A stretch of DNA of 11,395 nt from a virus: the UHGV virus genome UHGV-0117955. The stretch is one strand, 5' to 3'. The notes under the pieces were generated by a model. It saw only the letters and a program-made list of their open reading frames with translations, was not told where the DNA came from and did no database searches. Position 1 is the first letter of the stretch. Each line of letters begins with the position of its first letter. A program made the position numbers and the translations under genes. Of this stretch, positions 7 to 11,091 are shown piece by piece.

Positions 7-702
7 ATGTTATATGCATTTAAGCTGGGCAGAAAACTGCGCGGCGAGGAACCTTGGTGCCCTGAAAAAGGCGGGAAAGGTGGTAGCTCTGATAAAAGTG
101 CAAAGTATGCCGCAGAAGCTCAGAAGTATGCAGCAGACCTGCAAAATCAGCAGTGGCAGACGATCATGAAAAACCTTGCTCCGTTCACGCCTCTTGCGGA
201 GCAGTATGTTAACCAGCTTCAGAACCTTTCCAGTTTAGAAGGGCAGGGGCAGGCACTTAACCAGTATTACAACTCTCAGCAGTACAAAGACCTTGCTGGT
301 CAGGCGCGCTATCAGAGTCTGGTGGCAGCGGAAGCAACAGGTGGATTAGGTTCCACCGCAACCAGTAATCAGTTAGCAACAATCGCACCAACTCTTGGCC
401 AGCAATGGCTATCTGGACAAATGAACAACTACCAGAATCTGGCAAATATTGGTCTTGGCGCTCTTCAGGGACAGGCAAACGCCGGGCAAACATATGCCAA
501 CAACATGAGCCAGATTTCACAGCAAAGCGCGGCACTGGCGGCGGCAAACGCTAATAGACCTTCCGGCCTTCAATCTGCAATAGGCGGGGCTGCCTCTGGA
601 GCAATTGCTGGAGCACAACTTGGCAGCATTGTTCCTGGTATTGGTACTGGTATTGGTGCCGCTGTTGGTGGCGGTCTTGGTCTGCTTGGCTCGTTGTTTT
701 AA
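7..702 (+). CDS. P22-type ejection (injection) protein, gp7-like
   Basis: ATG at 7; the frame is open to the window edge, so the true start could lie upstream. 231 aa, Gln/Asn/Ala-rich with a Gly-rich hydrophobic C-terminus (…GIGTGIGAAVGGGLGLLGSLF). Stop TAA at 700-702. Size and position directly upstream of the gp20/gp16-like genes match the first of the three P22 ejection proteins (about 229 aa in P22, from memory). Confidence 0.6.
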   Translation: MLYAFKLGRKLRGEEPWCPEKGGKGGSSDKSAKYAAEAQKYAADLQNQQWQTIMKNLAPFTPLAEQYVNQLQNLSSLEGQGQALNQYYNSQQYKDLAGQARYQSLVAAEATGGLGSTATSNQLATIAPTLGQQWLSGQMNNYQNLANIGLGALQGQANAGQTYANNMSQISQQSAALAAANANRPSGLQSAIGGAASGAIAGAQLGSIVPGIGTGIGAAVGGGLGLLGSLF

Positions 703-711
703 GGGGTAATC

Positions 712-2178
712 ATGGCTACTTGGCAAGGAACAAATGGCGGATTGTTGGCTGGTATCGGTGGGGTCAACTCAAACGCTCCGAGCGTAAATGAGATCGGCAA
801 TACGCTTCAGCTTATCAGGCAGAACAATGATATTGAGCGCTCAGGCGCTAACAATGTTGGACTGACGGCCTTGCAAGGTCTTTCAGGTATTGCTGGTGTT
901 TTTCAGCAGGAAAAGCAGGCTCAGCGGCAGAAAGAATTTCAGCAGGCATACGCTAATGCTTATGCGTCTGGTGATCGCGGTGCTTTGCGTCAGTTGGCTA
1001 CTCAATATCCAGACCAGATTGAATCCGTTCGTAAAGGCATGGGATTCATTGATGAAGACCAGCGCAATTCTATCGGCACCTTAGCGGCTGGCGCACGCCT
1101 TGCGGCCTCGTCTCCAGAAGCAATGCAATCATGGCTGCAAAACAACGCCAAGGAACTGACTCGCGTCGGTGTTGACCCTAACAGCGTTGCTCAGATGTAT
1201 CAGCAGAACCCTTCAGGATTTGGTGAGTTTGTTGATCACCTTGGGATGGCTGCTCTTGGTCCGATTGATTACTTCAATGTTCAGGACAAGATGGCTGGTC
1301 GTGAAATTGACCGAGGCAGGCTGGCAGAGACAATCCGCAGCAATCAGGCCGGCGAAGCACTTCAGGCGAGAGGGCAGGATATTAGCCGAGCAAATGCGTT
1401 AACGTCAGCATATGCACCAACAGCCGCAATGCAGAATTACAATCAGTACGCGCAAATGTTAAAGGCAGATCCAGATGGTGCAGCGGCATTTGCGGCAGCG
1501 GCGGGAATTAATCCCAATGCTAAGAAATTACTTAAGGTTGAAACCAATCCTGATGGCTCGGTAACTAAGTATTACACCGATGGCAGCGAGGAAGCCGGAA
1601 AACTAAACCAACCTATATCTGGTGATGGCATTAAACCAATTAGCTTGCCACAAGCGCAAAGCATCATAGATAAGGCTAATGAGGGTTCCAAGAAGGCGGC
1701 GGGATTTGCTTTGCGATTAAAAGATTCAATGGACTCAATGAATCAGCTTAGTAAAAGCATTGACCCTAAGCGAGTTGCATTAATAAATCGCTCTCTTGGT
1801 GATGGGACTATTGCAAATTTAAGCCTATCACCAGCGGAGCAGCAATATATGGTAAATGCGAGAGACGCCTTGTATGCAATTTTGCGCCCAGAAACAGGTG
1901 CAGCAATTACTCTGCCAGAGATGCAGGAGTATTCCAAAATGTACCTGCCTCAGCCCGGTGATTCCAAGGCTGCTACTGAAACAAAAATGCGAAAAATGCA
2001 GGGCCAATATAACTCATTACGTGGTCAGTCTGGTCGCGTTTATGATGCTTTGGTGGTTTCAAGTGCTGCAAATAGTCAACAACAGAGCAATAGCCAACAA
2101 CCGACAAATACCCAACAGAAGCAGAGTCAATCCGGATCATATACCTCAAAATCAGGCATTCAATTTACGGTGGAATGA
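712..2178 (+). CDS. P22-type ejection protein, gp20-like
   Basis: ATG at 712 preceded by AAGGGG (701-706). 488 aa, Ala/Gln-rich, with a Q/S-rich low-complexity C-terminus. Its stop overlaps the next start as ATGA (2175-2178), indicating translational coupling. Order and size fit the P22 7-20-16 ejection-protein trio. Confidence 0.6.
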
Positions 2179-4007
2179 TGAAAGTAACTGCAAACGGTAA
2201 GACATTTACCTTCCCTGATGGTACGAGCACGGAAGATATTGGCACCGCCATTGATGAGTATTTTGCTGGTCAGGCTGTTCAGCAACAAACAGTTAATCAG
2301 GCCAATAATGCACCAACACAGGAAGAACCATCATTGATGCAACAAGCTGGCGATTGGCTCACTGGTGGTCAAAGTGCAGGGCAAATTGCAGAACAGGCTG
2401 GTCGTGGTCTGGTAAACATACCATTTGACGTATTGCAGGGTGGCGCAAGTCTGATTAATGCAATCAGTCAGGGGCTTGGTGGGCCAAAAGTATTGGATGA
2501 TGTCTATCGTCCAGTCGATCGACCGACAGACCCTTATGCGCAAGCTGGAGAAACAATTGGCGGGTATTTAGTTCCAGGAGTTGGAACGGCAGGAAGCATG
2601 GCTATTGGATCACTGGCAGAGGCCGCAAATCAGAAAGGCGATTTCGCACAAAATGCAGCTAAAAATGCCGGAGTTAACCTTGCCGCTCAGGGTGTTCTTT
2701 CCGCAGCAGCAAAGGGAATAGGGCGTGGAATTACTGCTGTTCGTGGCGAAATATCACCAGCAGATCAGCAATTGCTCAAGCGTGCCGCTGCGGCAGATGT
2801 ACCAGTTATGACATCGGATGTAGTTCCTCCAAAAACAAAACTTGGCAATCAACTGCAGGGTTACTCAGAAGGAGTCATAGCTGGTACTGGACCAATGAGA
2901 GCCGCACAGCAGGATGCCAGAACCAAGCTTGTTAATCGCTTCACCGAAAAATACGGCGACTACGATCCATCTGTAGTCGTTGATAGTCTAAAGTCAGGCG
3001 TTGCAAGGGAAAAATCGTTAGCCAAGTCAAAACTAAACAACCTGTCAGGAAGAATGGTTGGAAAGCCAGTTGATACAAGTGGCGCCATAAGAGCCATCGA
3101 CGGAGCAGTAAACGAACTTGGGAAACTTAAAGGTGTTTCTGACACCCAGACCATTTCTGCGCTTAATGATTATAAGAATGCCATTCAGGAGATAACAAAT
3201 GGAGATGATGCCTTTGAGTTACTTGATAAGCTGAGAACTCAGTTCCGCATTGACGTAAAAGGCGATCGCACAGTTCTGCCATCAATGTCGCAAACAATGA
3301 TCAACAGGGTCTACAACTCGCTAACCAATAGCCTTAGTAAATCTATAGCGAAAGGACTTAGCCCAAAAGATGCTTCAGCATGGAGAGCGGGAAAAGCTGA
3401 TTATGCAAAAATGGCAACACATGCAACTCAAACGCGCCTTAAAAACGTTCTAAACAAAGGAGATTTAACTCCCGAGGCTGTAAATACCATTGTGTATGGA
3501 CAATATGGGTCAGATATAGCTCGATTGTACGGGAAACTCGATCAAAAAGGTAAAGACATGCTAAGGGCGGCATATATCAGCAAAATAGCTGACAAGGTAG
3601 GTGACAGCCCTCAGAAAATGATGACCGAGCTTGGCAAGCTGCAAAAACAAGCAAATGGTCAGGTGTTTAAAACTGTATTTGGTGGGAAGAACGGAAAAGA
3701 GATAGAGGGGATGTTATCTATTCTCGATGCTACCAAAAGAGCATCTGAGGCTAATGTTGTGACGAAGACTGGCATGACACTCGCGCCTTTGGTAAGGGTT
3801 ATTGGTAACCTAAAAACCGGAGGCGCGCTATTGGCTGGGGAAACAGGGATTGGCCTTATGTCGAGGGTTTATGAAAGCCCTATGGCTAGGAATGCGCTCT
3901 TACGTCTGGCAAACACTAAAGCTGGAACGCCAGCTTATGAAAGAGCGCTGAATAACGCCGCAAATGCCATCAGACCAATACTTGCCAATGATGCAACTGA
4001 TCGCTAA
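2175..4007 (+). CDS. P22-type ejection protein, gp16-like
   Basis: ATGATG start at 2175 overlapping the upstream stop. 610 aa, against about 609 aa for P22 gp16. Last gene of the ejection-protein trio, directly before the immunity region as in P22. Stop TAA at 4005-4007. Confidence 0.65.
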
Positions 4008-4028
4008 GGGTTGATGTCATGGATGTTG

Positions 4029-4667
4029 TTAATTGCGAATGGAATCGCGGAACTCTTTACTTGATAGAAAAGGATCTGTTCTCCTTAACTCATCATAGTT
4101 TTTATTAAACTTTCTTGCTTCACCTGGGTATCTGTTGAACAAAACATTGCAGAAAAAAGAGAGCAATAACTCACATATGAATGCTAATACCCTGAAAAAT
4201 AAAGGTATAAAAAGAAGGGAAGGTTCATTGAAGTCTCTATTCCAAACAAAATAGACAATCATCCCGACATACCAAATTGATATCCCTATACTGATGATTG
4301 TTCCAACAGAGGTAACTACGACCCCGATTAAGTCGGACAGTCTGTTTGCCAGTAACTCATTTGAGTATCTTGCAATCATATACCGCCAACATTTTGCAAT
4401 ATCATCCTGATCTGTAGAGTCTTCTGGAATAGCTAGGCTTCTACATATTGAAGTAGCTCTTTTTTTCTCAACTCTTTTTGAGAGCCATCCATTAAAGAGA
4501 TACATCAACACCTGCGTTGCTATTCCTGCACCAAGTGATATCAAAGACATCCCAAAAAATCGCCATCCTGGAGATAGCGACTGGTACTGCCAAACAAAAA
4601 AAATTAAAAAACCCAATGAGCCTATGACATAGGCTGATGTATCGCTATATATATCTATTTTTTTCAT
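4029..4667 (-). CDS. Integral membrane protein (four predicted TM helices) in the sieA position; candidate superinfection-exclusion protein
   Basis: The track ORF 4029..4700 begins with GTG and has no Shine-Dalgarno sequence. The in-frame ATG at 4667 is preceded by AAGGAG (4677-4681 on the - strand) and is the preferred start, giving 212 aa. Four long hydrophobic segments (YVIGSLGFLIFFVWQY; FFGMSLISLGAGIATQVLMYLF; LIGVVVTSVGTIISIGISIWYVGMIVYFVW; LLFIPLFFRVLAFICELLLSFFCNVLF) separated by charged loops. Markedly AT-rich compared with the flanking structural genes. It lies directly downstream of, and on the same strand as, the Mnt-like gene, where P22 carries sieA. The functional call is positional only. 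Confidence 0.45.
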   Translation of the reverse strand: MKKIDIYSDTSAYVIGSLGFLIFFVWQYQSLSPGWRFFGMSLISLGAGIATQVLMYLFNGWLSKRVEKKRATSICRSLAIPEDSTDQDDIAKCWRYMIARYSNELLANRLSDLIGVVVTSVGTIISIGISIWYVGMIVYFVWNRDFNEPSLLFIPLFFRVLAFICELLLSFFCNVLFNRYPGEARKFNKNYDELRRTDPFLSSKEFRDSIRN

Positions 4668-4717
4668 TGAGTAGCCACTCCTTAGTTTTGAGCAGAACAC
4701 CGGATGATAATGTTTTG

Positions 4718-4969
4718 TTATGTGTCTTTTGGGATTCTATCCAGTAACTCGTTGGAAATTTTATCAAGTAAAGATTTTATTTGTTTAAGATCTAATGATT
4801 TGTCTACTGATGAGACGTCAGATGATAACGCATCCTCAAGAATTTGAACTATCTCTGAGTTCATAGATCGACCGTTTCGTTTAGCCCTTTCCGCAATAGC
4901 ACTACGCATGCCGTCAGGCATTCTAACCGTAAATCTTTCTATGAAATTTGATTCGTCTTTTTCTGACAT
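4718..4969 (-). CDS. Mnt-like ribbon-helix-helix repressor (copy 1)
   Basis: The translation contains FTVRMPDGMRSAIAERAKRNGRSMNSEIVQILEDALS, closely matching the N-terminal ribbon-helix-helix region of P22 Mnt/Arc (FNFRMP…ANGRSMNSELLQIVQDALS, recalled). The track ORF starts at 5017 with a hydrophobic leader that would overlap the promoter; the preferred start is the internal ATG at 4969, giving 83 aa (P22 Mnt is 83 aa). Stop TAA at 4718-4720. Confidence 0.7.
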   Translation of the reverse strand: MSEKDESNFIERFTVRMPDGMRSAIAERAKRNGRSMNSEIVQILEDALSSDVSSVDKSLDLKQIKSLLDKISNELLDRIPKDT

Positions 4970-5018
4970 TTTCTTATTCGCAAGGCATATGAGCAATAAA
5001 AAACACAGTAGCATCATA

Positions 5019-5079
5019 TTGACATTATGAGCAATGGCATCATAATGGTGTCATGACATCATGGTGATGTCATTATGAC
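5019..5079. promoter_or_regulatory. Divergent overlapping promoters with palindromic operator-like sites (Pant/Pmnt-like)
   Basis: Rightward promoter: -35 TTGACA (5019-5024), 16-bp spacer, -10 CATAAT (5041-5046). Candidate leftward promoter on the - strand: -35 TGACAC (5053-5048), 17-bp spacer, -10 CATAAT (5030-5025). Perfect 10-bp palindrome TGTCATGACA (5049-5058) at the predicted rightward transcript start. Perfect 11-bp palindrome GTCATtATGAC (5069-5079). Repeated TGACAT/ATGTCA half-sites at 5020, 5054 and 5067. The architecture mirrors the overlapping Pant/Pmnt and operators of P22 immI. Confidence 0.55.
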
Positions 5080-5089
5080 GGAGATATTG

Positions 5090-5266
5090 ATGATGAGCGA
5101 TGTTCTTTACAGTGGTCGTAAAAGTCAGAGTTTCCAGCTTCGTTTGCCAGCGCGAATGAAGGAGGAGATCAGACGCGTAGCTGAAATGGATGGAATTTCT
5201 ATCAACTCTGCGATTGTGCAGCGACTGGCTAAAAGCCTGAGAGAGGAAAGAGCTAATGCCCAGTAA
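5090..5266 (+). CDS. Arc-like ribbon-helix-helix repressor
   Basis: 58 aa from ATG 5090, with GGAG (5080-5083) 6 nt upstream; the track ORF start at 5075 has no Shine-Dalgarno sequence. The motif SFQLRLPARMKEEIRRVAEMDGISINSAIVQRLAKSL matches the Arc/Mnt fold (P22 Arc is 53 aa, with FNLRWP…NGRSVNSEIYQRV). It sits directly downstream of the TTGACA/CATAAT promoter. Confidence 0.7.
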   Translation: MMSDVLYSGRKSQSFQLRLPARMKEEIRRVAEMDGISINSAIVQRLAKSLREERANAQ

Positions 5267-5339
5267 AAATAGTGAAGCCCGGAAGTGCGCGAACACAAAC
5301 CGGGCCTCTATGTCAGTAACCGTACCCAAGGAAACTAAC

Positions 5340-5978
5340 ATGAATATTGTAGCAAAATCAGATTATAACTTCCAAGGATTCACTTTTAACCCTGTAACAG
5401 AGGGCGGGTCTATCTGGTTCACCTCCGCCGAACTAGCTAAGGCTCTCGGCTATAAAAAAACTGATGCCATCAGCCAAATTTATGCCCGTAATGCTGACGA
5501 ATTTTCCGACTCAATGTCATTGACCCTCAATATGAAGGTCAACGGAATAAACAATAGCTTACGTAACAAATCGGTCAGAGTTTACTCGCTCCGAGGCGCT
5601 CACTTGGTGGCGATGTTTGCTTCTACGCCCAAGGCCAAAGAGTTCCGCCGCTGGGTGCTGGATATTTTGGATCGGCAGGCAGAATGCTCACCGATTGCAA
5701 AACAGTTTACTGACGAAGAACTGGTTAATCTCTGCTACTTACAATTGTGGATGGAGAAGAGTCAACAAATGTGCAAACACATCTACCCAGGAATGAAGCA
5801 AATTGGTTCTGAGCTTTCAGGAAGGATTTACGATATTGCATATGAGACTCGCTACATGTCAGAAGAAACCAAGAAATCACTTCTTCGTGAAATGAAGAAT
5901 CTTGATACCAACAATTTTGTCGTAAAGAACGCTCAGCCAATGCTGGCAAAACTGCGCGGCGAGGAATGGATTCATTGA
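5340..5978 (+). CDS. Bro-N domain antirepressor-like protein
   Basis: ATG at 5340 preceded by AAGGAA (5327-5332). The N-terminus (FQGFTFNPVTEGGSIWFTSAELAKALGY) looks like a Bro-N/antirepressor N-terminal domain. An alternative upstream ATG at 5256 overlaps the arc stop and is considered less likely. Stop TGA at 5976-5978. Confidence 0.6.
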   Translation: MNIVAKSDYNFQGFTFNPVTEGGSIWFTSAELAKALGYKKTDAISQIYARNADEFSDSMSLTLNMKVNGINNSLRNKSVRVYSLRGAHLVAMFASTPKAKEFRRWVLDILDRQAECSPIAKQFTDEELVNLCYLQLWMEKSQQMCKHIYPGMKQIGSELSGRIYDIAYETRYMSEETKKSLLREMKNLDTNNFVVKNAQPMLAKLRGEEWIH

Positions 5979-5982
5979 TTGG

Positions 5983-6028
5983 TGCGCCGGACGGCGCAAA
6001 AAGAAAACCGCCAGTGTGCTGCTGGCGG
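5983..6028. other. Two GC-rich intercistronic stem-loops
   Basis: Hairpin 1: TGCGCC-ggac-GGCGCA (5983-5998). Hairpin 2: CCGCCAG-tgtgctg-CTGGCGG (6008-6028), a 7-bp stem with a 7-nt loop. An A-rich run (5998-6007) lies between them, so on the - strand hairpin 2 is followed by TTTTCTTTT and resembles an intrinsic terminator facing leftward. Confidence 0.5.
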
Positions 6029-6066
6029 CCTATGTCACACCCTTACTACCACATAAGGAATGCCTA

Positions 6067-6795
6067 ATGACTTTTAAGAATGTAGCAAACATCGGATCCG
6101 TTGTCACGGATAAAACCATTGATAGCCAGTACCTGTTAGAGATGGTCAATCATGCTCGTAGACATTGCGGGGAAAAAGAAGTCCGCAATAACGACTTTAT
6201 TGCACGCATTAAGGATGAACTTGAAGGTGAGCACTACGAAATTTTCGTAGTTCAAAAATCAAACAAGACAACTTCTGAAAAAGTTGTTATGTCAATTAAG
6301 CAAGCCCTTCGAGTGGCTGCTCGTGAATCTAAAGCTGTTCGCCGCTCACTTGTAGACCAACTTGAAAGTATGCAAGAAGCGCACATTAAAAGCGGTAAAT
6401 CGTCGAGTGGACTTGTTGAGTATCGCCAGGCGCGAACATTGAAAATGACGGTTGAAGCTGTTACCAATCTGTTCGATTTGATGCCAAATCTTGCGCCGGA
6501 AGCAAAGCAGACTGCGGCAGCAAGCATAATCAACCCGATCGTTGGTTTTAATGCAATACCTCTTCCAGCAATAGAAGAGCATTACTACTCAGCAGGGGAG
6601 GTTGCAGAGCAGCTTGGAGTAACGGCCAACAAGATTGGTCGCATTGCTAACGCAAACAACCTCAAAACTGAGCAGTACGGTAAGTTCTTCCTGGATAAAT
6701 CTGCGCATTCCAGCAAACAGGTGGAAGCATTCCGCTACAATGCGGAAGGTGTTAAAGCACTACAACACCTGATTCATGGGAGTAATGTTGCATAA
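6067..6795 (+). CDS. Antirepressor-like protein (possible AntA-like N-terminus and KilA-C/ANT-like C-terminus)
   Basis: ATG at 6067 preceded by AAGGAA (6055-6060); the track ORF begins at a GTG at 6016. 242 aa. The C-terminal segment YYSAGEVAEQLGVTANKIGRIANANNL resembles the helix-turn-helix-like core of phage KilA-C/ANT domains, and the N-terminal part (…NDFIARIKDEL…) loosely resembles AntA-type domains. Domain calls are from memory and need an HMM search. The gene sits where ant sits in P22 immI. Confidence 0.4.
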   Translation: MTFKNVANIGSVVTDKTIDSQYLLEMVNHARRHCGEKEVRNNDFIARIKDELEGEHYEIFVVQKSNKTTSEKVVMSIKQALRVAARESKAVRRSLVDQLESMQEAHIKSGKSSSGLVEYRQARTLKMTVEAVTNLFDLMPNLAPEAKQTAAASIINPIVGFNAIPLPAIEEHYYSAGEVAEQLGVTANKIGRIANANNLKTEQYGKFFLDKSAHSSKQVEAFRYNAEGVKALQHLIHGSNVA

Positions 6796-7016
6796 TGGCA
6801 AAGAAAAAATATGGCATTATGCCGCCAAGAATCAAAGGAAGAGCCAGGGTAAAAGGCGATGCTGGAAGGTATCACATTCTTGGAGTTCTGTGGCATGAGA
6901 GAGCTTTAATTTTAAGTAGACCTCATGGGTACATTGAAAAGGTATCTATAGATAGAGTAGAGATTCTTCCCCTTACACCTGAAGAAGAAGAAACGTACGG
7001 ACTTTTTGATAACTAA
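6795..7016 (+). CDS. Hypothetical small protein (73 aa), translationally coupled to the upstream gene
   Basis: TAATG stop/start overlap at 6793-6797. GGGAG at 6778-6782. Basic N-terminus (MAKKKYGIMPPRIKGRARVKGD) and acidic C-terminus (TPEEEETYGLFDN). No recognisable motif. Ends just before the terminator at 7024. Confidence 0.5.
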   Translation: MAKKKYGIMPPRIKGRARVKGDAGRYHILGVLWHERALILSRPHGYIEKVSIDRVEILPLTPEEEETYGLFDN

Positions 7017-7023
7017 CCAACTA

Positions 7024-7047
7024 AACCCGCTTAATCGCGGGTTTTTT
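7024..7047. terminator. Intrinsic terminator between convergent genes
   Basis: AACCCGC-ttaatc-GCGGGTT stem-loop (7024-7043) followed by TTTTTT on the + strand. It lies between the stop of the 73-aa ORF (7016) and the convergent mnt-like gene, whose last codons and stop (7031-7033) are encoded within the stem. Confidence 0.7.
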
Positions 7048-7288
7048 CTTTTCTAAGGATATCAGCCACAACTTCTTTTACTCGTTCCGAGATTAATGAG
7101 GCCAGCCTCTCTTCTTCATCGCGATGCCCGCTTACAGGTGATGGTTTGGAGAGTGATTCTTCCATCGTAGCCACAATTTCGGAATTGATAGACCTGTTAT
7201 TCATTTTTGCACGTTGCTTAATCTTAGCGTGCAACTCGTGCGTAAGCCTCAAGTGGAACTGCGCCTCATCGTATTTGCTGTACATCAT
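7031..7288 (-). CDS. mnt: Mnt-like ribbon-helix-helix repressor (copy 2; the closer match to P22 Mnt)
   Basis: The translation MMYSKYDEAQFHLRLTHELHAKIKQRAKMNNRSINSEIVATMEESLSKPSPVSGHRDEEERLASL… aligns along its length with P22 Mnt as recalled (…FNFRMP…ANGRSMNSELLQIVQDALSKPSPVTGYRNDAERLA…). 85 aa from ATG 7288, with GAGG 5 nt upstream on the - strand. The track ORF (7031..7684) extends 132 codons further upstream across the tailspike start and is treated as a spurious extension. Confidence 0.8.
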   Translation of the reverse strand: MMYSKYDEAQFHLRLTHELHAKIKQRAKMNNRSINSEIVATMEESLSKPSPVSGHRDEEERLASLISERVKEVVADILRKEKTRD

Positions 7289-7420
7289 CAATGCCTCACC
7301 AAATGGGTGGAATGGCATCGTAAAACCTACTGTACAAATCAACAATCGTACCATTTCGGTATGCAATAAACGCCAACCGTAGCCATGCTGCGGCGATTCC
7401 TTGTATCTGGAGCAAATTAA

Positions 7421-10153
7421 ATGACAGACATTACAGCTAATGTTGTAGTGAGTATGCCTTCGCAACTCTTCACTATGGCTCGTTCTTTTAAAGCCGTAGC
7501 TAATGGCAAAATTTATATCGGTAAAATTGACACTGACCCTGTAAATCCTGAAAACCAGATTCAGGTTTATGTGGAGAACGAAGACGGTTCTCACGTTCCT
7601 GTTGCACAGCCAATCGTCATTAATGCTGCTGGATATCCGGTATATAACGGGCAGATTGCCAAATTCGTAACTGTGCAAGGCCATTCTATGGCTGTATATG
7701 ATGCGTATGGCACGCAGCAGTTCTATTTCCCTAATGTGCTGAAGTATGACCCGGATCAGTTACGGCAGCAATTAGAAGATCCTGATGGTGCTAAAAAATA
7801 CCCTGAATTACAGATTGCACGATGGCGGGATGATAAAGACGTTCGCGGGTGGGGGGCGGATGACTCTGGGAATAGAGATTCAACACAGGCTTTTCTTGAC
7901 GCCGCATCTAGCGCAGGAAAGAGTGGTTTGGTTCATGTGCCTTCTGGTGAGTTTATAGTTGATGCATCGAAAATAGATATTTCACGCTTCTCCGGTGATG
8001 GTGTTCTAATCAGTAATGGTGTTCGCATTTCTGTTAATCCGCCGATGCAAAGTTTCTCCATTGGACAAAGAAAACTTGCGACCCTGAATTTTGGTGATGA
8101 TATCAATGCGCCAACTATATATGCGAATGCACAAAATGCATTGCAGGGAATAGCTTGTGTAAGGCATGAAGGTATTGAGAAGGTTTTTATCACTCAACAG
8201 GTTGGAGGTTCTAACTGGGGAAAGGACACCCTCACAAGGATCAGTGAGTGGCACTATACAAGCGATGGTTCAACTCTTTATGTTGTGACATTTACAGAGC
8301 CATTGCCTCTTGGTCACGGTTCAGATCTTTCTGCCACAATAGAGAACGGTGAACTATATCTGTTTACAACAACAATTGCTGAGACTGGTTCCTCTCTAGG
8401 AGGGAAGGGGTATTCAAAGACAAAATGGAAAGGGGCATCAACATCTGCTGAAGATATAACTCATTACCGAGTATTTGGTGAGCCGGGTGATAATAATCTG
8501 ATTAACCTTGCGCAGCGGGCAAGTATTTGTGTATCTAATGATGGGCGATATGTCATATTAATTGCGACATCAAACGCTGGGACTGGCCGCTTTTTATACG
8601 TATATGATCGCAAAGAAGTGGAATCTTCTTCTAACCCAATGAAAGTTAGACCGATTAATGGTCCTGTTCCACTTGTCCGTGGTAAAGGTCAGTATGGTGC
8701 AACACTTCAGGGTATTACATCAGATAGCAGATATATTTACACAATTTGGGGTGGCGTTCCTGCAAGATGCGTAAGGACAGTACAGATTTATGATATGGGT
8801 GGTACGCTAATACGTTCATTTCCTGTATCACTTGCCGCATCACTTTATACAGAGACTCAGTTAAATGGTTCTGACTCTAAAATCGGAGTTCCGGTTAGCT
8901 TTGAGCCTGAAGGGCTGGCAATAAGAGGTGATGAACTTGTCTGTGGTGCTATGGATGTATGGAAAAGCGCAGGGGATGTTGTAAGCCATCGTGGTAAAAA
9001 TTGGGTAAGTATTGTTACTGGTGATAACAAGGGAAATCTTCCGACAAACAGGTCTTATTGGTTAAAAACATCGCTTGCAGCGACAAGTGGTGAATGGGAT
9101 TCAGGCGCAACATATAAATCAGGTGATTATACTCGCAGAAATAAGCATCTGTTTGGAATAGCAAACCTGTCTGATATTCTTGGCAACCATCCAGTGCATG
9201 GTGCAGAATCCGATCCGTATACCGGAACCGCGCATCAATATTATGCTGGAACTGATATCGCCTTTAACCGTGAGCACGGTTCATTTACTATTGCGATATT
9301 TGACGAAGCCATTGGAGAGTATACCAAATCCCTCGAGTTGAATTATGGAAATAACCTTAACCTGTTTGATACAGATTACGGACATGACAATAATTCATGG
9401 GTAAGTACGAAAGCAGTATTCGACTCAAACTTTCGAGGTATGCAGTTCCGTTCTAAAGATGGGAATACTGCGGGTGGTGCTTATATTGATATCCATGCTG
9501 CTGATTGTCCATCTGCGGCTGGTGAGTTGATACTTGCCTCTACAGATGGAGGTGTCGTCAGACTTAAGCAGGGGAATGTAACAGTATTTTCTGCGACTAA
9601 AGATACTACATCGACATGGGCGACGACGACATTAAGGCCAACAACTGATAACCAGGTATCACTTGGAAGGTCCGTTAACCGCTTTTCTCAGGTCTACGCA
9701 GGGACTGCAACTATAAATACATCTGATGCAACAGAGAAAACGGAAGTCAGAACTCTTTCCGATAAAGAGCAGGCGGTTGGGTTAGCTCTTGTTGATGAAA
9801 TTGGTTTTTATCAATGGCTTGATAGTGTAAAAAATAAGGGAGCTGATGCCAGACTTCATGCCGGACTTACGGTGCAACGGGCAATGGAAATATTCAGAGA
9901 GAATGGACTTGATCCATTTAAATACGGAGCGATCTGCTATGACAGATGGGATGCATATGCAGATACAGATCCTGCTATTTATGATGATAAAGGTAACCTT
10001 GTTCGTGAGGCTATAACTATTACGCATGAAGCAGGAGAACGCTATGCATTCAGAAATGATGAATTACAGTATCTAATGATTGCTGCATTAGGTATACGTC
10101 AGAAAAATATTATAAAGAGGATTGAAGAACTGGAAAATAAGCTTGCAAATTAA
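7421..10153 (+). CDS. Tailspike protein: P22-type N-terminal head-binding domain fused to a divergent receptor-binding/depolymerase body
   Basis: GGAG at 7409-7412, ATG at 7421. The first ~115 aa ([11 protein letters not shown]…[39 protein letters not shown]…[13 protein letters not shown]…NVLKYDPDQ) are near-identical in pattern to the N-terminus of P22 gp9 as recalled. The rest (about 795 aa, against 667 aa total in P22) is unlike the P22 endorhamnosidase body. The last ~142 aa resemble a C-terminal intramolecular chaperone module: a TSD motif at Ser768 (nt 9722-9724), then [20 protein letters not shown] and a terminal coiled-coil-like [14 protein letters not shown]. Confidence 0.85.
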
Positions 10154-10308: not shown

Positions 10309-11019
10309 TTATTGTTTTTCTTTTGTTAGGTTCCAATATTCACTTGTGGTTTTTATGGAGTCCTTATTAGGCTTTACATAAGGTTTATGTATGGAGAGAT
10401 GAGGTCTTTCCCAGGCAATGTCTTTTTTTATTACTCTTGCTGGAACTCCTGCTGCAATAGAGTTATTTGGGACGTGTCCTTTAACAACAGCTGCATAGCC
10501 AATAACACTACCACTTTCGATTTCTGCACCACCAAGTATTGCCGCTCGGCGGCCAACCCAGACATGACTTCCAATATAAATAGATTTTGGCATATTTATA
10601 CGTTCACCTGTTACTACACTAAAAATAGGGTGGGAGTCATCAGTTTTAACTTCATTTCCACTTGAAAACATGCAGTCATCGCCAATAATTATGCTTGAGT
10701 TTTCTACAGCAGAAATCATACCTTTACCAGTGCAAGTGAAATCAGAGCCTATTTTTATGGAGGAATTCTCACCCACTCTTATATGGGCTTGTATACCTTT
10801 GTTTGCGATATGGCATGGGCCAATTTCAAAATACCCATTGTTGCAGTCAAAATATATCTCAAAATATTTTAATGATGCATCTTTATGAATGATAAGTTTA
10901 TTATTAGATCCTCTAAACTGAATTAGTTTGACGTCACAACTACCTTCGTACTGGATCTCATTACCCATTTCATCAGAATACTTCTCTGCTTTTGTTAAAA
11001 CAACTTTTCTAATTTTCAT
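10309..11019 (-). CDS. Hexapeptide-repeat (left-handed beta-helix) acyl/acetyltransferase; candidate lysogenic-conversion enzyme
   Basis: The C-terminal half carries typical hexapeptide-repeat motifs (IGDDCMFSSGNEV…IYIGSHVWVGRRAAILGGAEIESGSVIGYAAVVKGHVPNNSIAAGVPARVI). Strongly AT-rich relative to the structural genes. The track ORF begins at a TTG (11043); the first ATG is at 11019 (MKIRKVVL…), and neither has a strong Shine-Dalgarno sequence, so the start is uncertain. Stop TAA at 10309-10311. Confidence 0.75.
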   Translation of the reverse strand: MKIRKVVLTKAEKYSDEMGNEIQYEGSCDVKLIQFRGSNNKLIIHKDASLKYFEIYFDCNNGYFEIGPCHIANKGIQAHIRVGENSSIKIGSDFTCTGKGMISAVENSSIIIGDDCMFSSGNEVKTDDSHPIFSVVTGERINMPKSIYIGSHVWVGRRAAILGGAEIESGSVIGYAAVVKGHVPNNSIAAGVPARVIKKDIAWERPHLSIHKPYVKPNKDSIKTTSEYWNLTKEKQ

Positions 11020-11091
11020 ATTATCAATAAGTAAAAAATGCAAATGAAAATTTCAAATTTACATTATCTGGCGAGGTAATGCAACACGGAT

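Follow-up and report, generated by a model that had tools for sequence, protein, structure and literature searches.

The 11,395-nucleotide stretch of DNA analysed here (virus genome UHGV-0117955; 'the window' below means this whole stretch) corresponds to the end of the late operon in a P22-like (Lederbergvirus) genome and includes its hypervariable 'ant moron' region. Our subject is a small open reading frame (ORF) in this region, ORF73, named for its 73 codons. Villafane et al. gave the name 'ant moron' in 2008 to the slot that separates gene 16 from the tailspike gene, a site of very high genetic flux (PMC2629481). In other P22-like phages, this slot carries several genes of unknown function, and late transcription must pass through it on the way to the tailspike gene (PMC2629481; phage L genome preprint). 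An original prediction, made from the nucleotide sequence alone, had described ORF73 as an unrecognised accessory protein of bipolar charge, encoded by the coupled last cistron of an antirepressor operon, and had proposed that it may modulate the antirepressor or host targets. The coordinates and anatomy of that description, from the stop–start overlap to the operon terminator, are correct (Table 1).

The ORF73 start codon is joined to the end of ant2, with the last A of the ant2 stop codon serving as the first base of the ORF73 ATG. To follow this arrangement among close relatives, we used a set of 43 E. coli-type loci representing 17 nucleotide haplotypes. The overlap and the Shine-Dalgarno-like element ahead of it are present in every locus of the set. 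No slippery site for a programmed ant2–ORF73 frameshift fusion was seen on inspection. Downstream, the terminator hairpin (7023–7044) starts 7 nt after the ORF73 stop codon, comprises 8 bp (5 GC) with a loop of 6 and has an RNAfold free energy (dG) of -12.4 kcal/mol; the T-rich tail TTTTTTCTTTTC follows it. An intrinsic terminator lies within about 10–15 nt of the ORF73 stop codon in all 43 loci. The hairpin differs in nine of them, in which the downstream genes are replaced too, and a terminator is still present after ORF73.

The promoter-like site at 5019–5046 is presumed, by analogy with P22 immI, to function as the Pant equivalent. Between position 5046 and ORF73, a consensus scan, which cannot exclude weak promoters, found no other sigma-70-like site on the plus strand, and the first plus-strand terminator-like site after the promoter-like site is the hairpin behind ORF73. 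Because no other plus-strand promoter-like site intervenes, we place ORF73 as the last cistron of an arc-ant1-ant2-orf73 operon, in agreement with the original prediction. The gene has the position of a P22 immI operon member: it lies on the same strand as the Arc-family and antirepressor genes and downstream of them, no promoter or terminator intervenes, and it ends at a terminator. It is optional, and not a constant component of the immI circuit (mnt, arc, ant and sar). An Rfam scan of 4000–7600 detected no sar-like or other Rfam RNA. The ant2 ATG has its own AAGGA, 7 nt upstream.

Table 1 Features of the window, in order of position
Feature	Position	Strand	Details
Three ejection-protein genes	7–4007	+	
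sieA-like membrane protein gene	4029–4700	-	
mnt-like ribbon-helix-helix repressor gene	4718–4969	-	Divergent from the operon; Pfam Arc, E 2.1e-17; start at an internal Met (MSEKDES...) inferred
Promoter-like TTGACA-16-CATAAT amid operator-like direct and palindromic repeats	5006–5074	+	Promoter-like site at 5019–5046, 11/12 matches; presumed Pant equivalent
arc-like ribbon-helix-helix repressor gene	5075–5266	+	First cistron of the operon; Pfam Arc, E 1.1e-11
ant1, P22-type antirepressor gene	5337–5978	+	Bro-N plus P22_AR_C; ATG 5337 inferred from JEP4 and RefSeq gene lengths
ant2, antirepressor-like gene	6067–6795	+	PHROG 1726 'anti-repressor', E 5.8e-100; 'KilA protein' in JEP4
Optional cassette, ~300 nt	6700–7018	+	Final ~20–30 ant2 codons plus ORF73; left edge approximate (6690–6745)
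Shine-Dalgarno-like GGGAG	6779–6783	+	Within the final ant2 codons, 11 nt before the ORF73 ATG; invariant in 43/43 loci
TAATG stop/start overlap, ant2–ORF73	6793–6797	+	Translational coupling signal; ant2 TAA at 6793–6795; in 43/43 loci
ORF73 coding sequence	6795–7016	+	73 aa plus TAA; ATG 6795, TAA 7014–7016; PHROG 4977 member
Operon intrinsic terminator	7023–7052	+	Hairpin 7023–7044 plus T-run; hairpin scan, RNAfold
Second mnt-like ribbon-helix-helix gene	7031–7288	-	Convergent with ORF73; Arc, E 9.8e-15; 'regulatory protein mnt' in JEP4
Tailspike gene	7421–10153		

The window contains 65 ORFs of at least 40 aa, and an ORF of 73 codons alone is not above chance. ORF73 was therefore judged by its conservation and not by its length. 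At 97–100% identity, the protein occurs in 1 of 50,697 phage records (phage JEP4, as a hypothetical protein). It is also present in 54 of 5,426 complete E. coli genomes, where RefSeq annotation lists it as a hypothetical protein, and on 42 IMG/VR contigs; at least 1000 public contigs carry the exact protein of the window. One of the E. coli carriers is strain 55989, whose copy is 99.5% identical. Across the 17 haplotypes, 23 sites of ORF73 vary, 15 at the third, 6 at the first and 2 at the second codon position, and only 6 of the 23 are nonsynonymous (K5R, P10S, R18M, A37S, V50I and V55I). The ratio of nonsynonymous to synonymous substitution rates (dN/dS) is 0.10–0.32 for family pairs with unsaturated dS. 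Failure of the frame to be conserved in related phages was the outcome on which the original prediction would have been given up; the frame is kept from Met1 even in homologs at 31–49% identity. The family consensus reads M-A-R-K-S-K-Y-G-N-M-P-P-x-P ... A-x-V-K-G-D-A-G-x-Y-x-V-W-G-I-D-W ... V-L-x-D-R-A-G-x-E-W-x-P-I-x-K-V, in which P10 and W33 are invariant among the distant homologs.

Three database variants (P0003, P0004 and P0006) have their first ~20 residues out of frame and rejoin the family at VKGDAG. The breaks fall at an A6 run (6804–6809) and a G3 run (6841–6843). Because these variants are single-contig assemblies, break at homopolymer runs and contradict the conserved N-terminal motif, their shifted N-termini most likely arose through misassembly. 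Such entries make the cluster look more diverse than it is and could lead automated start-site calls astray. They had also suggested that coding begins only at VKGDAG, which we rejected on the grounds that distant homologs keep the N-terminal motif. The frequency of short ORFs and the few database homologs with frameshifted N-termini would suit an ORF that is open by chance within untranslated 3' sequence. Against this stand the signs of purifying selection, the conservation of the start context, a fold predicted with confidence and the existence of about 90 clusters of homologs in two proteobacterial classes, along with the probable assembly origin of the frameshifts. The chance reading is already effectively refuted, and ORF73 is almost certainly a genuine gene.

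ORF73 matches the phrog_4977 profile over its full length (E 5.5e-54, 181 bits, residues 1–73 on positions 1–73 of 73), as do 75 of the 76 homologs that we collected. On these profile matches, family membership is established for PHROG 4977 only, a function-unknown entry without a Pfam or NCBIfam model or a solved structure. About 90 homologous clusters at 31–49% identity, all unnamed and none with a Pfam domain, emerged when 1.84 billion representatives were scanned exhaustively with HMMER and 5.8 billion proteins were searched with a profile. Their hosts are Pseudomonas, Stutzerimonas, Serratia, Burkholderia, Klebsiella, Salmonella, Citrobacter, Vibrio and Aeromonas. These searches overturned the view of an orphan gene restricted to E. 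coli and Salmonella, which had come from a single-sequence, word-indexed search returning only relatives at >=80% identity. Searches of Pfam, NCBIfam, PADLOC (defence-system models, 0 families) and the PDB (phmmer) with ORF73 gave no match, nor did the family profile against the PDB; the sole Pfam line for ORF73, DUF6552 at E 0.24, is noise. No functional work on the gene was found in the literature on JEP4, the 'ant moron', phrog_4977 and small proteins associated with antirepressors. The description of ORF73 as an unrecognised small accessory protein in the original prediction is supported.

The ORF73 protein has a mass of 8.4 kDa and an isoelectric point (pI) of 9.4, with its charge distributed unevenly along the chain. 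Residues 1–25 hold nine K/R and one D/E (net +8), residues 26–58 are neutral, and residues 59–73 hold no K/R and five D/E (net -5). The bipolar charge noted in the original prediction is a trait of the whole family, with a net-positive N-terminal part in 74 of 76 members and a net-negative C-terminal tail in 70 of 76.

From the single sequence, AlphaFold produced a weak model (predicted local distance difference test (pLDDT) score of 73, with 45–55 for the other models). With an alignment of 76 sequences, all five models converged to pLDDT 88–90 and a predicted template modelling score (pTM) of 0.73 for the monomer. The predicted fold is, with confidence, a five-stranded SH3-like beta-barrel (~16–58) with strands at 16–19, 26–32, 37–41, 47–51 and 55–58, preceded by a 15-residue N-terminal peptide and followed by a C-terminal helix at 62–71. 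The basic N-terminal peptide bears the conserved motif K-Y-G-x-M-P-P, and the short C-terminal helix is acidic. The best fold matches include the retroviral integrase C-terminal domain, the KOW domain of NusG/Spt5, KIN17 and the ribosomal proteins eL14/eL27; a BFVD structure search returned no match better than E 0.007, all of them uncharacterised proteins. ORF73 has only the fold in common with SH3-like barrels such as the PHF19 Tudor domain, the integrase C-terminal domain, NusG/Spt5 KOW and canonical SH3. Sequence identity to these is 4–17%, no Pfam model of those families matched, and the KYGxMPP peptide and acidic tail are specific to the ORF73 family. Neither a KOW sequence motif nor a match to the Pfam KOW model was found in ORF73.

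Some family members have extra domains. Two of 153–164 aa (P0011 and P0017) have a ~90-residue C-terminal extension without a PHROG or Pfam match, and one of 192 aa (P0014), which may have arisen by fusion of neighbouring small genes, begins with a PHROG 9154 domain, a domain whose function is unknown. The type B dihydrofolate reductases (DfrB, R67) were considered and rejected. Their defining features are the VQIY active-site motif, K32 and W38, and homologues occur in phages (PMC9835603); the enzyme is a homotetramer with a central active-site pore. ORF73 has no VQIY, and a search of PDB sequences with the family profile picked up no DfrB chain at a threshold as loose as E 10.

Comparison with close relatives indicates that ORF73 moves as part of a small cassette. 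Along ant2, from 6067 up to about 6690–6745, Klebsiella phage phiKp_30 matches the window at ~99.5% identity; it then diverges, without ORF73, and identity resumes at 7019, at the terminator. The mobile unit is therefore ~300 nt long and comprises the ant2 3' end plus ORF73. Together with E. coli GF4, phiKp_30 is a natural ORF73 'deletion' with the same flanks, and its Ant2 protein is 98.5% identical to that of the window. The terminator after ORF73 also serves the ORF73-less alleles. Both versions of the ant2 C-terminus encode nearly the same peptide (...GSNVA*) with different codons. In carriers, the Gly-Ser codons GGG AGT create the GGGAG Shine-Dalgarno element, whereas the GGC TCA of non-carriers creates none, so that the element is made by synonymous codon choice in ORF73-carrying alleles only.

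In the E. coli clade, ORF73 lies directly after ant2 in 43 of 43 loci, among which mnt1, arc, ant1, sieA, mnt2 and the tailspike gene swap freely. The ant2 alleles of these loci share 86–100% protein identity and the ORF73 alleles 97–100%. One locus, an IMG/VR prophage (L035), has ant2 split by an IS3-family insertion sequence (2540–3745, OrfA of 112 aa and OrfB of 272 aa, minus strand); ORF73 and the downstream mnt-like gene are intact. Seen from ant2, the association is loose. This ant2 type occurs in about 76 E. coli genomes, compared with 54 for ORF73, and of the 209 phage records with ant2 homologs, about 110 of them from Stx2 phages, only one carries ORF73. The linkage is one-way: ORF73 need not accompany ant2. 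As a side observation, the PHROG 1726-type ant2 is shared with these Stx2-converting phages at about 62–66% identity.

The 'ant moron' genes hkcB, hkcC, 59a and orf62 of P22-like phages resemble ORF73 by description (PMC2629481; phage L preprint): they occupy the same hypervariable slot, from the last ejection-protein gene to the tailspike, and are likewise small, optional and uncharacterised. A moron, in the Juhala/Hendrix definition as quoted in PMC2629481, is an independently expressed inserted gene. ORF73 is present or absent between related phages (the ~300-nt indel) and deviates in composition, with a GC content of 39.6% overall and 30% at third codon positions (GC3), compared with 44.2% and 41% for ant2. 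Unlike a moron so defined, it has neither a promoter nor a terminator to itself and is a passenger of the antirepressor operon.

Outside the E. coli clade, the gene keeps other company. In the Serratia/Klebsiella branch (19 loci), most phage-derived loci carry it in the equivalent slot of temperate podoviruses, immediately behind the last large gene for an ejection protein, and an antirepressor (PHROG 4792), together with an Ash-like regulator, is close by in only one of the 19. In Salmonella, a member was found on a plasmid-like contig that also carries RelB/ParE, Hha, ProQ/FinO, PilO and TIR-domain genes. The Pseudomonas, Stutzerimonas, Burkholderia and Vibrio members lie within co-directional strings of small hypothetical genes, and their neighbours include DNA methyltransferases, SprT-like, GmrSD_N, Fic, DUF2786 and HigB. 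Some of these loci are on P. aeruginosa megaplasmids, and others are in gene strings resembling integrative and conjugative elements (ICEs) or phages. No viral contig carrying the Pseudomonas member emerged from a related-locus search. An all-versus-all BLASTP comparison found no conserved neighbour gene across the family contexts, the gene itself being the sole shared item. The family therefore behaves as a single-gene mobile-element cassette without a fixed partner.

Two further observations concern these surroundings. Several loci (L003 and L004 from Stutzerimonas, L073 on the P. aeruginosa plasmid pF076, and L007 from Burkholderia) place the gene near DNA- or S-adenosylmethionine (SAM)-dependent methyltransferases, SprT-like, GmrSD_N and Fic genes, and such neighbourhoods may belong to ICE or plasmid regions of the establishment or anti-restriction type. 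A type II antitoxin, with a DNA-binding N-terminal part and an acidic tail that binds the toxin, was considered and rejected for want of an adjacent cognate toxin gene: no neighbour is conserved across the contexts, and in the window the neighbours are ant2 and the convergent Mnt-like gene.

Taken together, we favour, at a probability of about 55%, the reading that ORF73 is a portable stoichiometric binder, encoded by an independent accessory gene that is co-expressed with the antirepressors and is not their dedicated partner. On this reading, a horizontally mobile single-gene cassette of PHROG 4977 joined the Mnt/Arc-controlled arc-ant1-ant2 operon and became its last, coupled cistron. In the P22 paradigm, the Mnt/Arc-controlled promoter fires transiently after infection or when immI repression is lifted. 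By analogy, ORF73 would be made with the antirepressors in a burst after DNA entry or upon the lifting of immI repression; we infer this co-expression because ORF73 has no promoter of its own. Late-operon read-through toward the tailspike may add to its expression. The protein appears too small, and its predicted fold too generic, for an enzyme; with no cofactor or catalytic signature, it would act by binding, through an interface formed by the KYGxMPP peptide and a barrel face rich in aromatic residues (Y26, W33 and R42). Since conservation reaches from E. coli to Burkholderia and the gene moves unaccompanied, its target would be a host protein or nucleic acid conserved across these hosts; an antirepressor or repressor specific to the phage is an unlikely target. 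Several points weigh against this reading. The binder mechanism is argued from size, predicted fold and portability, and SH3-like barrels occasionally become enzymes by oligomerising, DfrB being an example (PMC9835603). The contexts of the distant members, about 12 independent settings, were sampled and are not exhaustive. In addition, the complete ant2 linkage in the E. coli clade, and the fact that the cassette brings its own ant2 3' end, fit a functional ant2–ORF73 pair equally well.

Such a pair would make ORF73 a dedicated partner of Ant2, whether chaperone, specificity subunit or inhibitor, held at a fixed ratio by translational coupling. It would agree with the TAATG junction kept in all 43 loci while every other module swaps, with the inclusion of the final ant2 codons in the cassette and with a Serratia prophage member found two genes ahead of another antirepressor, one that matches PHROG 1726 in its N-terminal domain. 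We consider it unlikely nonetheless, given the near-identical Ant2 of phiKp_30 and that of GF4 without ORF73, the single carrier among the 209 phage records with ant2 homologs, the intact ORF73 behind the split ant2, and the plasmid, ICE-like and Klebsiella podovirus members, which have no antirepressor within 4–5 kb. The suggestion in the original prediction that ORF73 may modulate the antirepressor fares poorly for the same reasons: ant2 occurs without it in GF4, phiKp_30 and more than 200 other phage records, distant members have no common neighbour, and an antirepressor is near only one of the 19 Serratia/Klebsiella loci. A dedicated antirepressor modulator it probably is not. That ORF73 is itself a small antirepressor, third in the operon and inactivating a phage repressor, seems very improbable, even in an operon that already has two antirepressor-type genes. 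The SH3-like antirepressor CarS of Myxococcus is alike only in topology and in the type of repressor/antirepressor circuit; CarS is an acidic DNA mimic and ORF73 is basic overall, and there is no sequence match between them. Precedents are CarS, a mimic of operator DNA (Leon et al. 2010, as cited in PMC9835603), and small proteins that inactivate prophage repressors (PMC10432266).

A sub-case of the binder reading is an anti-defence or host-takeover effector, which would inhibit a conserved immune or housekeeping factor right after DNA entry. It would suit expression from an immediate-early, transiently active antirepressor promoter, as in P22 immI, as well as the small size, bipolar charge and conserved terminal peptide, the single-gene presence/absence polymorphism, and the accessory regions of phages, plasmids and ICE-like elements in which members lie, several near DNA methyltransferases, SprT-like, GmrSD_N and Fic genes. 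This is guilt by association; PADLOC models and structure comparison gave no specific match to a defence family or known inhibitor, and many such small phage genes have unrelated roles, so that we hold this sub-case only tentatively. It is doubtful that ORF73 is a small nucleic-acid-binding regulator, of tailspike read-through or of mRNA, that acts through its basic N-terminal arm and a barrel like those of KOW and integrase C-terminal domains. The strongly basic first 25 residues and the DNA/RNA-binding SH3-like domains among the best fold matches point in this direction, as does the location of the gene just ahead of the terminator that late transcription must pass toward the tailspike (PMC2629481). 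Within the binder reading, we offer one more specific, speculative proposal: PHROG 4977 may be a new family of portable mini-effectors, a barrel with an N-terminal docking peptide released in the immediate-early burst, which would neutralise a host factor conserved in gamma- and beta-proteobacteria and would have been captured independently by P22-like and other podoviruses, megaplasmids and ICE-like elements. Candidate target classes would be a defence component or a core protein such as one of transcription, replication or proteolysis.

The surroundings of ORF73 in the window show several other features. The operon has two distinct antirepressor types in tandem, ant1 with Bro-N and P22_AR_C domains and the PHROG 1726-type ant2, which has similarity to the N-terminus of P1/P7 Ant1. 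The second mnt-like gene occurs at the same position, at >=96% identity, in 31 of the 43 loci, and its TAA stop codon sits within the loop of the plus-strand terminator hairpin. Read on the minus strand, this hairpin is followed merely by TTTAG, and a strong minus-strand intrinsic terminator (dG about -19 kcal/mol) lies between ant1 and ant2 (6005–6031); for these reasons, mnt2 transcripts might run antisense over ORF73 and ant2. One half-site of the repeats at 5006–5074, AATGGCATCATAA, is found again as AATGGCATCGTAA (7311–7323) ahead of the second mnt-like gene, a hint that the two ends of the locus are cross-regulated. After the tailspike gene, a hexapeptide-repeat acyltransferase gene (10309–11043, minus strand, GC 35.5%, Pfam Hexapep E 7e-7) is probably an O-antigen-modifying lysogenic-conversion moron.

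ORF73 is a fairly ordinary uncharacterised accessory gene of the P22-like 'ant moron', with nothing in it to surprise a specialist. Its function is experimentally cheap to address, because natural pairs with and without the cassette exist (the window and JEP4 versus phiKp_30 and GF4) and because the carrier JEP4 is culturable and propagated lytically. A defined target, if found, would give a function to PHROG 4977, a catalogued family that is otherwise blank. If proven, such a target would bring a fourth type of component into the classical P22 immI paradigm and would show how accessory genes make use of antirepressor operons for immediate-early expression.

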